Shown here: piece after piece, positions 4,654 to 61,576 of the stretch | How the letters are laid out: every line of letters begins with the position of its first letter | How positions within the stretch are numbered: the stretch's first letter is position 1 | Source of the DNA: Escherichia coli | GTDB lineage: Bacteria; Pseudomonadota; Gammaproteobacteria; Enterobacterales; Enterobacteriaceae | Assembly (NCBI RefSeq): GCF_011045215.1 | Contig: NZ_CP049201.1 | Strand: one strand, 5' to 3' | DNA length: 64,000 bases | The notes under the pieces: model-generated | What the model was told of the DNA's origin: nothing | Databases searched by the model: none | What the model saw: the letters and a program-made list of their open reading frames with translations, nothing else | Made by a program: the position numbers and the translations under genes

Positions 4654-4763
4654 TCTTGCCGCTCCCCTGCAATCCAGGGGAGCTGATTCAGATAATCCCC
4701 AATGACCTTTCATTCTCTATTCTTAAAATAGTCCTGAGTCAGAAACTGTAATTGAGAACCACA

Positions 4764-9385: not shown

Positions 9386-9612
9386 CCGCGCAGAATAACG
9401 TATAGAAAATTAAAAGTATAATTTTTATTTTGTATGTATTATCTTCGATACATTCACCAGACTTATTATCATTTCAGAGGAATTATTTGATTAAGGTTTT
9501 ACTTAAGGCGTAACAAATGATATTTATCGGCTAACTGAACTTCTCCTTTAGGATGTTTTCACTCCCCGAAATGGGGATCAAAGGCAAATAAAATAACTAA
9601 AGGATTTATTCA

Positions 9613-10805: not shown

Positions 10806-11321
<516 letters not shown>

Positions 11322-11328
11322 CACTAAC

Positions 11329-11353
11329 GCCCGCACATTGCTGCGGGCTTTTT
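11329..11353 (+). terminator. Rho-independent terminator of uspF
   Basis: GCCCGCA-loop-TGCGGGC followed by TTTTT. Confidence 0.8.
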
Positions 11354-11496
11354 GATTCATTTCGCAAATGTGCTGACATTTTCCCCTCTAATCCGTACCA
11401 TACACGCCACAGTTTTTATATCAGATTTCTTATGCTGGGCGTTCCGGCATGACGCATACTCTTCTGATGCCATATAACGAATTGAGTCGCTTTTAA

Positions 11497-11550
11497 ATGT
11501 CGCAAAATCAAGAAATTAGCAAGAAAGAACAATACAATCTGAACAAGTAA
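11497..11550 (+). pseudogene. ttcC: Remnant of the original ttcA 5' end (ttcC-like), displaced by prophage integration
   Basis: ATG...TAA encodes MSQNQEISKKEQYNLNK*, paralogous to the intact ttcA N-terminus [17 protein letters not shown] at 60641; stop lies immediately after the att core. Confidence 0.7.
11532..11546. repeat. attL core (15-bp direct repeat ATACAATCTGAACAA)
   Basis: Identical 15-mer at 60676..60690 inside ttcA; flanking bases show extended imperfect identity. Confidence 0.8.
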
Positions 11551-11643: not shown

Positions 11644-11697
11644 ACTCTTTTGTTGCCCCATTTTTGCCCCTTTTACAGCATTTTGCCCCATTTTTGC
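11644..11697. promoter_or_regulatory. Repeated TTGCCCCATTTTTGCC motifs; candidate integrase arm-type binding sites
   Basis: Two copies of TGCCCCATTTTTGCC ~100 bp inside attL; a related TTTGCCCCATTT motif sits between int and attR (60601-60620). Confidence 0.4.
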
Positions 11698-11785
11698 CAC
11701 CGAAAAAATTCCAAAACTTCTCAACCTCAGCACGTTCTTGAATATGGCATATGACAATTTCCTTTACGATTTATATGCTGTTATA

Positions 11786-11815
11786 AAAATCCCCAGTTGT
11801 CAGCAACAACTGGGG
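11786..11815 (-). terminator. Rho-independent terminator after the HTH-peptidase gene
   Basis: CCCCAGTTGT-CAGC-AACAACTGGGG hairpin followed by a U-rich tract on the minus strand. Confidence 0.7.
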
Positions 11816-11873
11816 ATTTACTTTTCAGGCCCAAAAGACGTTCACTACGACTCTAGATGTGAGCATTTACGGG

Positions 11874-12980
11874 TCATACTAGTCGGAGCGAAGCCCTTGA
11901 TGGTGTTCTTTTGTTATTTCCGCCACTAATTGCCGCAACTCCATAAAGCAAACTACTCAATTCATCGAGAGGTACGTTAAGCTCATTACTCAAGTGAGCC
12001 AGATAAATGCCGTCTCCAGCCAGAGCAGTCATCATTTTTTCTATAACGAGTGATCTTTCGCGCTCAATTCCCCCCGGCTCACCGGTTCGATACCCCTTTG
12101 CCGTCGCATCACGCATCAAACTATTATACTGCCATTCCGTCAGCATATTTAGATTGCGCATTCTGACAATCAGGGCCATAGCCGAAACTTTCCAGAGTGA
12201 TTTCAATTGCACAATTTTATCAAACGTCGGGACCACCATCTTAACGGCCATCACGTTTTCCTGAGGCATTAGAAATGCAGAAGCAAAAGCATCCGCTTCA
12301 CGCTCAGCATCCTGCCCTTTGACTTCCCCTTGACGATGAAGTACTAGGTGAGCCAATTCATGTGCGGCATCAAAACGGCTGCGTTCACCTGACTTGCGTG
12401 TGTTAAGAAAGATATAAGGAACATCATCTTTCCAGAACGAAAAAGCATCAATACTCGCTGTTTCCTCTGAAAGCCAGAACACCTTAACTCCAAATTTCTC
12501 AAGTAGATGAACAACATTGGTGATACTCTTCTTACCAATCCCCCAAGCCTCGCGTATCGCTTGGGCAGCGACCTCAGGCTCACTTCCACGGAGATTCGGC
12601 AATTGAGGCGAAGGAAGAGTAAAGCGAGCATTAAAATAATCGCTAAGCATAACCCCTAAAGCACCTGCACCAATTGCCGCATGCTGGTCAGCAGCTTTTG
12701 TTGTGCGTAATGAACGAAATGAAACAGTCAATGGATCAATTGTTTCAACATCATCGCCAAAGAAAAAAGCCTCTGGATAATTTAAAGCACTAGCGTATGC
12801 GCGTACCGTCTCTGCCGTGGGTGCATAAAGACAATAATCTTTTTCGTATTCAATTACGATACGACTAGATAACCCGGTTCGCCTCGCCAGTTCTGCCAAG
12901 GTCAGTTTGCGTCTGATCCGCGCTAGCTTTAGTCGAGACGGATTAAAAAGACGTTTGACATCATCAACAGTGTTACTCAT
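11874..12980 (-). CDS. Fused XRE-family HTH / ImmA-IrrE (COG2856-type) zinc metallopeptidase protein; candidate antitoxin or regulator
   Basis: N-terminal HTH (LKLARIRRKLTLAELARRTGLS) and HEXXH motif (HELAHLVLH); ATGA start/stop overlap with upstream gene. Confidence 0.75.
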   Translation of the reverse strand: MSNTVDDVKRLFNPSRLKLARIRRKLTLAELARRTGLSSRIVIEYEKDYCLYAPTAETVRAYASALNYPEAFFFGDDVETIDPLTVSFRSLRTTKAADQHAAIGAGALGVMLSDYFNARFTLPSPQLPNLRGSEPEVAAQAIREAWGIGKKSITNVVHLLEKFGVKVFWLSEETASIDAFSFWKDDVPYIFLNTRKSGERSRFDAAHELAHLVLHRQGEVKGQDAEREADAFASAFLMPQENVMAVKMVVPTFDKIVQLKSLWKVSAMALIVRMRNLNMLTEWQYNSLMRDATAKGYRTGEPGGIERERSLVIEKMMTALAGDGIYLAHLSNELNVPLDELSSLLYGVAAISGGNNKRTPSRASLRLV

Positions 12981-13648
12981 TTGCTTTCAACTGAAATTGA
13001 TATGTCATCATCAAAATCCTGTTCAGGGAAAATATCCGCACCTTCAAATTGCAGAGGAGCTAAAATAATTCGCTCACTCCACGCGCTTACTCTGGCAAAT
13101 CCGTCCTGATTCACCATCCCTACCGGATACGACACCTCACAGCGAATTTCTTTATTTGCCGCATCATAATAATACAGAACGATATAAGTTCGGGTGCTAT
13201 CTATCGGCGTGATCTCAGCTTTGCCTGAATGTAAGGTATCTGCTTGGAACATATCGAATGTACCCGGATTGTTGTGAACAATCGAGCGAGTTGCCTCTCC
13301 CTTTGCATTTTTGGTTTTAGGCAATCCATCAGGACGCCCGGTATGTCCGTCACCTGAGGTAATAATCAGATTAACCCCTTTGCTTGAATTAACGACCATT
13401 TCCATGCGATTGACTACTTCAGAAGACCAGCCGTTACCCTTACCAATCAGAATACGGCGAAGCGCGGCAACCATCTCACTCCAAAAGCGGAATCCAGCAT
13501 CCACTTTAGGGTGGAGCTTACTGGATTTGCGTCGCTCGTATAAAGCAGACATTAACGCATCGCGAATATCATTTTCTGTAAAGCCCAGTTTACTAAGTAC
13601 AAAATCCGAATCAATTCCTGTATGCAGAACACAATGAGGCATATTCAT
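12977..13648 (-). CDS. Hypothetical protein, partner of the HTH-peptidase gene (candidate toxin/effector)
   Basis: Track ORF 12977..13666; ATG at 13648 with GGGAGA upstream; no recognisable motif; translationally coupled to downstream gene. Confidence 0.55.
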   Translation of the reverse strand: MNMPHCVLHTGIDSDFVLSKLGFTENDIRDALMSALYERRKSSKLHPKVDAGFRFWSEMVAALRRILIGKGNGWSSEVVNRMEMVVNSSKGVNLIITSGDGHTGRPDGLPKTKNAKGEATRSIVHNNPGTFDMFQADTLHSGKAEITPIDSTRTYIVLYYYDAANKEIRCEVSYPVGMVNQDGFARVSAWSERIILAPLQFEGADIFPEQDFDDDISISVESK

Positions 13649-13884
13649 GAAAGTTTCTCCCATCACTTTTACTTCATGATTTTATCATAAAATTTATGCA
13701 AAAATCAAGAAGTGACACCCTGCAAGCGATTGTAGACTTTCTCTTGTTTTCTTACGTTCCTGCTCTCCAATTGCGCAATTGATTTCTTCAACAATATGAG
13801 AGTACACATCATAAACCTCCGACTGCAGCCAGCAACCGGAGCCTCATTCTTCAGATACCAGAACAACTCACTGCGACCTATTCG

Positions 13885-59037: not shown

Positions 59038-59136
59038 ATTGCATTGTATTCAAATTAAAACTTCATAGCTGATTATTAATAATCAACATCGGGCGTCAAT
59101 TTCAGTCTAACATTGGCGCCTGCCAGAGGTGATGCG

Positions 59137-59352
59137 ATGGCACAAGTAATCTTTAATGAAGAGTGGATGGTTGAATACGGCCTGATGCTTCGCACTGGTC
59201 TGGGGGCCAGACAAATTGAAGCATACCGCCAGAACTGTTGGGTGGAAGGCTTCCACTTCAAACGAGTATCTCCTTTAGGGAAGCCAGACAGTAAGCGAGG
59301 GATTATCTGGTACAACTATCCAAAGATAAATCAGTTTATCAAAGACTCATGA
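59137..59352 (+). CDS. Excisionase (Xis, Rac XisR-like)
   Basis: Track ORF starts at TTG 59113; ATG at 59137 with GAGGTGA upstream; [22 protein letters not shown]...; immediately upstream of int. Confidence 0.6.
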
Positions 59353-59353
59353 T

Positions 59354-60589
59354 ATGTCTAAATTACCAACAGGTGTCGAGATTCGAGGTAAATACATTCG
59401 CATCTGGTTCATGTTTCGAGGAAAACGATGCCGGGAAACATTGAAAGGCTGGGAGGTTACTAACAGTAACATTAAAAAAGCCGGGAATTTAAGAGCGTTG
59501 ATAGTTCATGAAATCAATTCCGGTGAATTTGAGTATTTAAGACGTTTCCCCCAGTCCGGCACTGGGGCAAAAATGGTGACAACTAGGGTCATAAAAACGT
59601 TCGGGGAGCTTTGTGATATCTGGACAAAAATTAAAGAGACAGAGTTAACAACAAACACAATGAAGAAAACGAAATCACAATTAAAAACACTCAAGATAAT
59701 AATTTGTGAGAGTACCCCGATATCGCATATTCGTTATAGCGATATCTTAAACTACCGGAATGAACTGCTGCATGGAGAAACGCTTTACCTGGATAATCCA
59801 AGATCCAACAAAAAAGGAAGAACCGTGCGCACAGTTGATAACTATATCGCCCTACTCTGTTCGCTGTTACGTTTTGCGTATCAGTCGGGATTTATATCAA
59901 CCAAACCATTTGAAGGAGTAAAAAAATTACAGCGAAACAGAATAAAGCCTGACCCGTTATCTAAAACAGAATTCAATGCATTAATGGAAAGTGAAAAAGG
60001 ACAGAGCCAGAACTTATGGAAATTTGCCGTTTACTCAGGACTTCGTCACGGGGAACTGGCAGCTCTGGCGTGGGAGGATGTGGATCTCGAGAAGGGAATT
60101 GTGAATGTCAGAAGAAACCTGACGATACTTGATATGTTCGGTCCCCCAAAAACAAATGCCGGGATCCGGACAGTAACACTACTGCAGCCTGCTCTTGAAG
60201 CACTGAAGGAGCAATACAAACTGACCGGACATCATCGCAAAAGCGAAATCACCTTTTATCATAGGGAGTACGGCAGAACCGAAAAGCAAAAACTGCATTT
60301 TGTTTTCATGCCCAGGATGTGTAACGGAAAACAGAAACCTTATTACTCGGTAAGCAGTTTGGGTGCGAGATGGAATGCAGCAGTAAAACGTGCTGGTATT
60401 CGCCGCCGTAATCCGTACCATACGCGGCATACTTTTGCCTGCTGGCTGTTGACGGCAGGAGCGAACCCGGCGTTTATAGCCAGCCAGATGGGGCATGAAA
60501 CTGCGCAGATGGTGTATGAAATTTACGGTATGTGGATTGATGACATGAACGACGAACAGGTAGCCATGTTGAATGCGCGGTTATCGTAA
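59354..60589 (+). CDS. Site-specific tyrosine integrase
   Basis: 411 aa; C-terminal catalytic region HTRHTFACWLLTAGANPAFIASQMGHETAQMVYEIYG (R...HxxR...Y); next to attR. Confidence 0.9.
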   Translation: MSKLPTGVEIRGKYIRIWFMFRGKRCRETLKGWEVTNSNIKKAGNLRALIVHEINSGEFEYLRRFPQSGTGAKMVTTRVIKTFGELCDIWTKIKETELTTNTMKKTKSQLKTLKIIICESTPISHIRYSDILNYRNELLHGETLYLDNPRSNKKGRTVRTVDNYIALLCSLLRFAYQSGFISTKPFEGVKKLQRNRIKPDPLSKTEFNALMESEKGQSQNLWKFAVYSGLRHGELAALAWEDVDLEKGIVNVRRNLTILDMFGPPKTNAGIRTVTLLQPALEALKEQYKLTGHHRKSEITFYHREYGRTEKQKLHFVFMPRMCNGKQKPYYSVSSLGARWNAAVKRAGIRRRNPYHTRHTFACWLLTAGANPAFIASQMGHETAQMVYEIYGMWIDDMNDEQVAMLNARLS

Positions 60590-60640
60590 TTGCAAAGTTT
60601 GCCCCCAATTTGCCCCATTTAGTACCAGAGAACTGAAATA

Positions 60641-61576
60641 ATGCAAGAAAATCAAAAGAATACGAAGAAAGAGATATACAATCTGAACAAATTACAAAAA
60701 CGCCTGCGTCGTAACGTGGGCGAAGCCATTGCTGACTTCAATATGATTGAAGAAGGCGATCGCATCATGGTTTGCCTCTCCGGGGGTAAAGACAGCTATA
60801 CCATGCTGGAGATTCTGCGCAATTTGCAGCAAAGCGCGCCAATCAATTTTTCGCTGGTGGCTGTTAACCTCGATCAAAAGCAACCGGGCTTCCCGGAACA
60901 CGTTCTGCCCGAGTATCTTGAAAAGCTGGGCGTTGAGTACAAGATTGTTGAAGAGAACACTTACGGTATCGTGAAAGAGAAGATTCCAGAGGGCAAAACC
61001 ACTTGCTCACTGTGTTCTCGGCTACGTCGCGGTATCCTTTATCGCACCGCAACGGAACTGGGGGCGACGAAGATCGCGTTGGGCCACCATCGTGACGATA
61101 TCCTGCAAACGTTGTTCTTAAATATGTTCTACGGCGGTAAGATGAAAGGTATGCCTCCGAAACTGATGAGCGATGATGGCAAACATATCGTTATTCGTCC
61201 GCTGGCCTACTGCCGCGAGAAAGATATTCAGCGATTTGCCGATGCAAAAGCGTTCCCGATTATTCCGTGCAACCTGTGCGGTTCACAGCCTAACCTGCAA
61301 CGTCAGGTGATTGCTGACATGTTGCGTGACTGGGATAAACGTTATCCAGGGCGTATCGAGACGATGTTCAGCGCGATGCAGAATGTGGTGCCGTCGCATC
61401 TGTGCGATACCAACCTGTTCGATTTCAAAGGCATCACCCACGGTTCTGAAGTGGTTAACGGGGGTGATCTTGCGTTTGATCGCGAAGAGATCCCACTACA
61501 ACCGGCGGGCTGGCAGCCAGAAGAAGATGAAAATCAGTTGGATGAGTTACGGCTGAATGTGGTTGAAGTGAAATAA
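60641..61576 (+). CDS. ttcA: tRNA 2-thiocytidine(32) synthetase TtcA (5' end and promoter supplied by prophage DNA)
   Basis: 311 aa; PP-loop SGGKDS, CxxC clusters; N-terminal 11 codons differ from the ttcC remnant. Confidence 0.95.
60676..60690. repeat. attR core (15-bp direct repeat ATACAATCTGAACAA) inside ttcA codons 12-17
   Basis: Identical to 11532..11546. Confidence 0.8.

Follow-up and report, generated by a model that had tools for sequence, protein, structure and literature searches.

The tRNA-thiolation gene ttcA is represented twice in the window (the whole 64-kb stretch of DNA analysed here), once as an intact gene and once as a short 5' remnant beside uspF, and a prophage occupies the interval between the two copies. 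The locus comprises the following elements.

10887-11321, + strand: uspF, the chromosomal neighbour on the left side of the insertion (translation ending LVVR before the stop; annotated uspF in the matching empty-site locus)
11497-11550, + strand: ttcA 5' remnant of 17 codons and a stop, reading MSQNQEISKKEQYNLNK, equivalent to the K-12 pseudogene ttcC
11532-11546, + strand: att core copy at the uspF-side junction, ATACAATCTGAACAA
11547-60675, no strand assigned: prophage DNA between the core copies, Rac-SA53-like with mosaic early genes
59113-59352, + strand: XisR-like excisionase (phrog_539, E=6.7e-27), placed as xisR is in K-12
59354-60589, + strand: tyrosine integrase (int) of the IntR family with an N-terminal arm-binding domain, from its Pfam domains
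60641-61576, + strand: intact ttcA, encoding the 311-aa TtcA; codons 1-12 and all upstream DNA are assigned to the phage, the body from the core onward to the chromosome
60676-60690, + strand: att core copy at the int-side junction, ATACAATCTGAACAA

Both ttcA reading frames and the 15-bp core that they had been predicted to share are present, and the 15-mer occurs exactly twice in the window, with the two copies lying 49,144 bp apart. The two 51-nt ttcA 5' ends align in register with 38/51 nt identical, while the similarity of both junctions ends at the right edge of the core and the sequences beyond are unrelated. The arrangement of the flanking genes was also as originally described: ompN and uspF, the latter followed by its terminator, lie to the left of the insertion, and xis, int, a 52-bp spacer, ttcA and dbpA follow one another on the right. 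The core encodes YNLNK, the first strongly conserved residues of TtcA. In gamma-proteobacterial TtcA proteins the residues before YNLNK vary freely while a 12-residue segment is conserved, so that the core coincides with the first codons under conservation and integration replaces the portion of the protein that tolerates change; the residues that integration changes are six, at positions 2, 3, 6, 7, 8 and 12. As uninterrupted att identity extends over only 15 bp, the possible position of the crossover is narrowed, and going by the extent of identity alone the exchange is likely to have taken place within the core. The seventh base of the core is polymorphic (ATACAA[T/C]CTGAACAA): it is T at both window positions (11538 and 60682) and C in both K-12 copies, both Rac-SA53 copies and the attP of the free phage PHB10.

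The DNA between the core copies includes annotated matches to tail, baseplate, terminase, recE/recT and int genes. Its late half (window 11551-36000) matches Rac-SA53 over 77% of its length at 95.4% identity, and its early half (36001-60675) over 47% at 90.7%. Most of the late and some of the early genes (13900-59000) are in addition 90-95% identical to PP818812.1, named 'Actinobacillus phage vB_Apl-pPE4', an odd host assignment for a phage of the Rac family. At the uspF-side end, the - strand carries a Rosmer anti-phage defence pair (11874-13666) composed of rmrA (PADLOC PDLC03949, E=5.6e-143) and rmrT (PDLC03935, E=1.3e-59), and just 7 of the 5426 complete E. coli genomes have this 2-kb prophage end with its Rosmer pair. 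Between the P' arm repeats described below and rmrA, at the 3' end of that gene, lies a strong hairpin (11787-11819; -21.8 kcal/mol, z = -6), which probably terminates transcription in both directions and would block transcripts arriving from the stranded start region of ttcA.

The short reading frame and the 15-mer might in principle reflect a chance similarity or a local duplication, with no site-specific recombination involved, a reading that draws on the small size of the features and nothing more. Against it, the 15-mer is confined to the termini of a 49-kb segment of phage-like DNA that int/xis delimit, the starts of the two copies align in register at the 38/51 nt given above, and K-12 has this structure as an annotated feature, as over half of E. 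coli genomes have it too; we consider this explanation already refuted.

Empty site, attP and direction of the exchange

The uninterrupted locus was reconstructed by joining the left flank, the core and the right flank into a predicted attB of 413 nt, which was searched in 5426 complete E. coli genomes. It is present, contiguous and 100% identical over the 413 nt, in EC1515 and many other prophage-free E. coli, where uspF and ttcA are annotated as neighbours. The alignment with a prophage-free ttcA, which the original prediction had put forward as its own refutation test, therefore returned the predicted junction at 100% over 413 nt. Across the 5426 genomes, an uninterrupted ttcA site was found in 2489 and an int-ttcA junction resembling that of the window in 2911, the latter being mostly of the K-12 type at 90-95% identity (highest, 98.3%); the integrase gene at these matching junctions is annotated as intR.

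Phage DNA provides the complementary half of the comparison. The attP of the free phage PHB10 is preserved in one piece and consists of int, two repeats, an open reading frame reading MQENQQNTKKEQYNLNKLR and a stop, and the other arm; that of IMG/VR contig L146, likewise in one piece, runs from int through a spacer into MQENQQITKKEQYNLNK and a stop, followed by GGGCAAAAATCAC... Free or excised phage DNA (PHB10 and one IMG/VR contig) thus has int, a ttcA-like reading frame of 17-19 codons, the core and the other arm joined together, and Rac-SA53 carries exactly the window's version of the phage-borne ttcA start. The proposal that the phage brings its own ttcA 5' end is borne out by the copies in PHB10, the L146 attP and Rac-SA53.

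The two copies are symmetric when the window is considered alone, and the opposite polarity, with the MQENQK... start being the host's own and the uspF-side stub brought in by the phage, would fit the window equally. Prophage-free genomes, however, join uspF directly to the MSQNQEISKKEQ...ttcA allele, and phage DNA joins int to the MQENQ... reading frame and then to the other arm, observations by which we regard the reverse polarity as already refuted. The attB of the empty-site genomes and the attP of phage DNA identify the uspF-side stub as the pre-integration start and the int-side start as that of the phage. The locus combines the features expected of a Rac element at ttcA, namely an IntR-type integrase upstream of the gene and in the same orientation, a ttcC-like duplicate by uspF, a natural attB and an attP in one piece.

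Taken together, these results support, with a probability of roughly 95%, a model in which a Rac-family phage of ~49.1 kb, closest to Rac-SA53, was integrated by its Int into ttcA codons 12-17 and swapped the start of the gene. According to this model, attP would carry, directly after int, the 52-bp spacer and a diverged copy of ttcA codons 1-17. Integration would then bring ttcA back to full length, with codons 1-12, the ribosome-binding site and all DNA upstream coming from the phage. The displaced start, 17 codons closed by a stop that lies in phage DNA, would be left beside uspF together with the region upstream of it, and excision would restore the MSQNQEISKKEQ... allele. The observation that prompted the analysis is confirmed and its main interpretation supported, with nothing that contradicts the integration model. 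Integration at ttcA with a swapped start is already known, having been documented for Rac in E. coli K-12, where both the excision of the element and the accompanying change of the TtcA N-terminus have been described (Liu et al. 2015, PMC4632033).

Integrase, arm repeats and ttcA transcription in the lysogen

The int and xis reading frames are both intact in the window. The integrase, which ends 52 bp before the ttcA ATG and is 98% identical to a protein cluster of 4126 members, combines an Arm-DNA-bind_2 domain (PF12167, E=4.9e-26, residues 5-68) with a Phage_integrase domain (PF00589, E=1.9e-22, residues 205-391). Its synonymous-codon identity to the E. cloacae/PHB10 integrase gene rises from ~0.25 in the middle of the gene to 0.6-0.9 in the last third (codons ~300-411), and this increase towards the att site suggests recombination among phage lineages, or with relics residing in hosts. 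Short direct repeats were located within both ends of the element.

11652-11703, + strand: P'-arm direct repeats, candidate Int arm-type sites (GTTGCCCCATT at 11652, TTTGCCCCTTT at 11663, TTTGCCCCATT at 11682 and the degenerate TTTTGCCACCG at 11692)
60598-60620, + strand: P-arm direct repeat pair, candidate arm-type sites (TTTGCCCCCAA / TTTGCCCCATT at 60598 and 60609, at an 11-bp interval, after the int stop codon and ahead of the ttcA ATG)

The 16-mer TTGCCCCATTTTTGCC is found at 11653 and 11683, and the related TTTGCCCCCAATTTGCCCCATTT occupies 60598-60620 at the right end. Their common motif, TTTGCCCC, occurs in seven copies in the window against 3.2 expected, and four of the seven lie less than 150 bp from the cores, all on the + strand; the distances between repeats and core are 57-78 bp to the left for the P arm and 106-160 bp to the right for the P' arm. 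Repeats had been anticipated inside both ends, and the count of two in the P arm and three to four in the P' arm, clustered beyond chance, agrees with that expectation. The P'-arm repeats are kept in K-12 Rac and Rac-SA53, PHB10 has two and three repeats at equivalent places in arms that are otherwise diverged, and the P' arm of IMG/VR contig L281 has four TTTGCCCC repeats. All the relatives examined have a TGCCCC repeat pair at the 3' end of int or just past it, independently of the gene they target; those with other targets comprise phiP27, Gifsy-2, RothC and VT1-Sakai together with integrases from Y. pseudotuberculosis, Serratia and Pantoea. The presence of an arm-binding domain in Int and the conservation of the repeats in diverged relatives indirectly support the view that the TTTGCCCC repeats are candidate arm-type sites. 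XisR has been reported to bind one Rac att junction, and IHF to bind transiently at the K-12 ttcA start. The IHF consensus WATCAANNNNTTR occurs within the window only in the remnant, at 11506-11518 (AATCAAGAAATTA); it is lost in the window phage's ttcA start (60650-60662, AATCAAAAGAATA) and kept in the phage-derived start of K-12.

The 52-bp spacer between int and ttcA (60590-60640) is taken up by the ribosome-binding region and two of the repeats, and a scan of 60200-60800, the spacer included, revealed neither a consensus promoter-like nor a terminator-like site. Two 5' ends of ttcA have been mapped in K-12, 111 and 114 nt ahead of the ATG and both inside intR (Kim et al. 2012, PMC3415461); they rest on 8 and 15 reads in the supplementary TSS table of that study. 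The same table has no TSS near ttcC, and the K. pneumoniae part of the tables has no entry for a ttcA orthologue. The 51 nt upstream of the K-12 ends are 50/51 identical to the window, which allowed their equivalents to be placed.

60527-60530, + strand: equivalents of the K-12 ttcA 5' ends, inside int at codon ~392 (60530 for the 111-nt and 60527 for the 114-nt 5'UTR)

Given that the K-12 ends fall in intR and that the sequence upstream of them is nearly identical, ttcA appears to be driven from phage DNA within int. The gene had originally been proposed to be expressed from phage-derived DNA at 60590-60640; the phage origin stands, but the coordinates do not, the ends being at 60527/60530. 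The PWM scan detected a weak ATGAAA-17-GAAATT site with a poor -35 just upstream of these positions. It is conceivable, although we consider it unlikely, that ttcA has no promoter of its own in the lysogen and depends on read-through from int/xis, with the mapped 5' ends being processing products: no terminator-like or consensus promoter-like site separates int from ttcA, and the ends have few reads and a poor -35. The mapping method, on the other hand, enriched primary transcripts (PMC3415461), the weak site is located just upstream of the mapped ends, and int expression is normally low in lysogens and yet ttcA function is retained (PMC4632033).

An integrase-like block in the uspF-ttcA spacer

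The 175-bp spacer that separates uspF from the displaced ttcA start, and which is also present in empty-site strains, contains a segment resembling the integrase gene itself.

11329-11348, + strand: uspF intrinsic terminator, a terminator-like GCCCGCACATTGCTGCGGGC followed by TTTTT; the block begins 18 nt further on
11366-11416, + strand: integrase-derived block, candidate promoter of pre-integration ttcA (CTGACA at 11373-11378, 17 nt, TACCAT at 11396-11401)
60386-60436, + strand: the block inside int, codons 345-361 (CTGGTA at 60393-60398, 17 nt, TACCAT at 60416-60421)

The spacer block is identical to int 60386-60436 at 39/51 positions (local score of 42, versus 19.3 +/- 2.3 for 500 shuffles) and reads KCADIFPSNPYHTRHSF, compared with KRAGIRRRNPYHTRHTF in int. 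It is the only promoter-like site on the + strand upstream of the remnant ATG and has the top score of the PWM scan. Gapped alignments of the 80 nt between the block and the empty-site ATG with the int 3' end and P arm were ambiguous. The stranded allele resembles the P arm of another Rac-family lineage. The original prediction held that the native ttcA promoter and start had been left next to uspF: the sequence is indeed that of the pre-integration allele, but this allele itself includes a recognisable piece of an integrase gene. In the K-12 lysogen, the mapped 5' ends lie at -111/-114 and not at the ~-216 that the block inside int would predict if it acted as a promoter there.

We then inspected the neighbourhood of ttcA in one genome per species. 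A full int stands beside the gene in an E. coli-like MAG, a soil MAG and E. cloacae, and an int truncated at aa 288-342 in E. albertii, Kluyvera, two Enterobacter species, RIT691 and Brenneria. In E. coli, Citrobacter, Pseudocitrobacter, Superficieibacter, Enterobacter BIGb0383, Pectobacterium, Mangrovibacter, Pantoea and, partly, Budvicia, only the block is present, ~50-140 nt before the ATG and with flanking sequences that are unrelated between genera. Among the sigma-70-like sites within 200 nt ahead of ttcA, the block ranks first in 11 of the 15 prophage-free hosts, with an invariant 17-nt spacing, and it takes the form of CTGGYA or CTGACA, exactly 17 nt and TACCAT; the better -35 (CTGACA) belongs to E. 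coli, Citrobacter and Budvicia, and the -35 of Pantoea is TTGGAA at equal spacing. The short host blocks translate in the int frame, that of Superficieibacter reading KRAGIRRRNPYHTRH, and differ from the window int at 19 third codon positions and at only 4 first and 5 second positions. This frame and the predominance of third-position differences indicate that the host blocks derive from diverged, functional integrase alleles. Enterobacter sp. Ag1 has two such layers, the first made up of an older block, an older ttcA 5' stub, the core and the start of a P' arm, and the second of a 5'-truncated int that contains another block and abuts ttcA (L019 3478-3600 and 3745-4000). On IMG/VR contig L266, the decayed remains of an integrase gene and a truncated start resembling that of ttcA (block at 4717) are followed, 4.8 kb further along, by an intact integrase of the same clade (block at 9487), so that this contig may have another stacked or tandem arrangement.

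Because a protein search of viral contigs with Int returned only integrases that are 98-100% identical, mostly cut at the int stop, the diversity of phage alleles was taken from a degenerate DNA pattern for NPYHTRH in IMG/VR contigs, and the matches with full flank yielded 25 distinct versions of the 51-nt block. In 120 of the 121 pattern matches AATCCGTACCAT is invariant, whereas neighbouring synonymous sites vary. Alleles with the synonymous variants of the E. coli block (ACA CGC CAC) exist among phages; in the lineage L271/L235 this allele is followed by the ttcA start MSQNQEVNKKEQ, close to the 'native' start of E. coli, and L281 has an intermediate structure in which the block is followed by 30 nt of int, a deletion, the arm repeats and then MSQNQETTKKEQYNLNKLR and a stop. 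The ttcA-adjacent integrase gene of Dickeya keeps the block exactly at an overall amino acid identity of 62%. The nucleotide block is absent from integrase relatives that target other genes: Y. pseudotuberculosis int, with another target and the same NPYHTRH residues, has CCA TAC CAC, and YQ is found in relatives further removed. Between the window int and that of E. cloacae/PHB10, synonymous-site identity amounts to 0.85-0.89 over the block versus 0.42 overall, a peak that cannot by itself separate constraint from mosaicism, as the whole last third of int is elevated. We also considered a fixed 5' boundary produced by recombination between resident and incoming blocks and rejected it: the longer relics are truncated at varied points (aa 288-342) and never inside the block, a distribution that is better explained by retention of the block than by a single point of recombination.

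From these sequence comparisons we infer, short of proof, that an earlier phage of the Rac family left its P arm behind, in decayed form, as the displaced 'native' upstream region, and that the 51-nt integrase fragment retained in it would serve as the ttcA promoter in non-lysogens. The broader proposal, to which we give even odds, is that Rac-family phages have serially replaced the ttcA promoter and the opening codons of the gene in Enterobacterales, and that a surviving 47-51-nt int block (within the codons of the catalytic motif AGIRRRNPYHT, constant at synonymous sites) acts as promoter in prophage-free hosts such as E. coli, Citrobacter, Pectobacterium and Pantoea. Each integration would put in a phage copy of the start, which would become the host's once the prophage had decayed, and the promoter-shaped block (CTGGYA, 17 nt, TACCAT) would be the minimal int fragment to survive upstream of ttcA. 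Alternatively, the block could be an ancestral host promoter that phage int acquired through gene conversion or selection for mimicry, in which case the host blocks would not be relics. A related element (CTGGCA-17-TATCAT-ACGCGCC) does occur upstream of ttcA in some Vibrionaceae, integrases of this clade from Vibrionaceae hosts were absent from the best 120 homologues, and the -10 and the GC-rich discriminator are conserved even where the remainder diverges; for these hosts, the related element and the unseen integrase keep an ancestral promoter in play as a rival. Overall we find this alternative improbable, since the blocks of Enterobacterales translate in the int frame to KRAGIRRRNPYHTRH with the codon-position bias given above, graded relics (full int, int truncated at aa 288-342, block only) and the stacked older and newer relics of Enterobacter sp. 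Ag1 are found, and phage alleles share the ACA CGC CAC variants of E. coli. In addition, the block codons (KRAGIR, RHT) are homologous in integrases with other targets, which argues that the block descends from the integrase family.

Serial replacement with an integrase-derived promoter does not appear to have been described, as far as the papers searched show. If correct, it would constitute a case of coding sequence that doubles as, and is then reduced to, a host promoter, with int and the attP arm as its serial supplier, and it would explain why the TtcA N-terminus is variable while the residues from YNLNK onward are fixed. A lysogen and its cured derivative would then offer a simple system to measure how prophage turnover rewires the expression of a core tRNA-modification gene.

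Comparison with known systems

The closest well-characterized counterpart is Rac of K-12 MG1655 (1411899..1434958), annotated with intR/xisR by ttcA and the 51-bp pseudogene ttcC by uspF. Its excision changes four N-terminal residues of TtcA, XisR is its excisionase, and strains fall into two TtcA N-terminal classes that follow Rac occupancy (Liu et al. 2015, PMC4632033), findings repeated in PMC11014345 and PMC6379469. The two elements have in common the ttcA target codons, the integrase family, xis, the uspF-side stub (ttcC) and repeats in both arms, and the uspF-side junction of the window aligns with that of K-12 through the P' arm. They differ in that K-12 Rac is a 23-kb defective remnant and the window element spans 49 kb with a full late-gene set; in the phage-borne start, which is MQENQQITKKEQ in K-12; in the number of residues changed (6 in the window, 4 in K-12); and in the uninterrupted att identity, 15 bp in the window as opposed to 26-27 bp in K-12 Rac. 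The window element offers a clean case of this arrangement, verified in full, from a Rac relative that is larger and apparently complete. Rac-SA53 (KU052037) agrees with the window in its phage-borne ttcA start and in the sequences of the junctions, and it matches the late genes best, but the early region of the window is mosaic and only 47% covered at ~91%. Sp10 and CP-933R of O157:H7 have been reported at the same ttcA site (PMC4632033); unlike these elements and Rac-SA53, the window has the Rosmer pair in its uspF-side 2 kb.

The integrase has the heterobivalent organization of the lambda type, with an N-terminal arm-binding and a C-terminal catalytic domain and xis beside int, and, at the sequence level, candidate direct repeats distinct from the core lie in both attP arms as in lambda, although the repeat motif (TTTGCCCC) is unrelated to that of lambda. 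Carrying the displaced segment so that the target remains functional and a pseudo-copy is left behind is a strategy shared with e14 and phage 21 in icd and with many tRNA-gene phages (PMC6379469). Those phages, however, replace the 3' end of their targets, whereas the phage in the window replaces the 5' end and must therefore also supply the signals for the start of translation and transcription. Qin at ydfJ offers the contrasting outcome of a 5'-end insertion, in which the promoter was lost and the protein truncated (PMC6379469).
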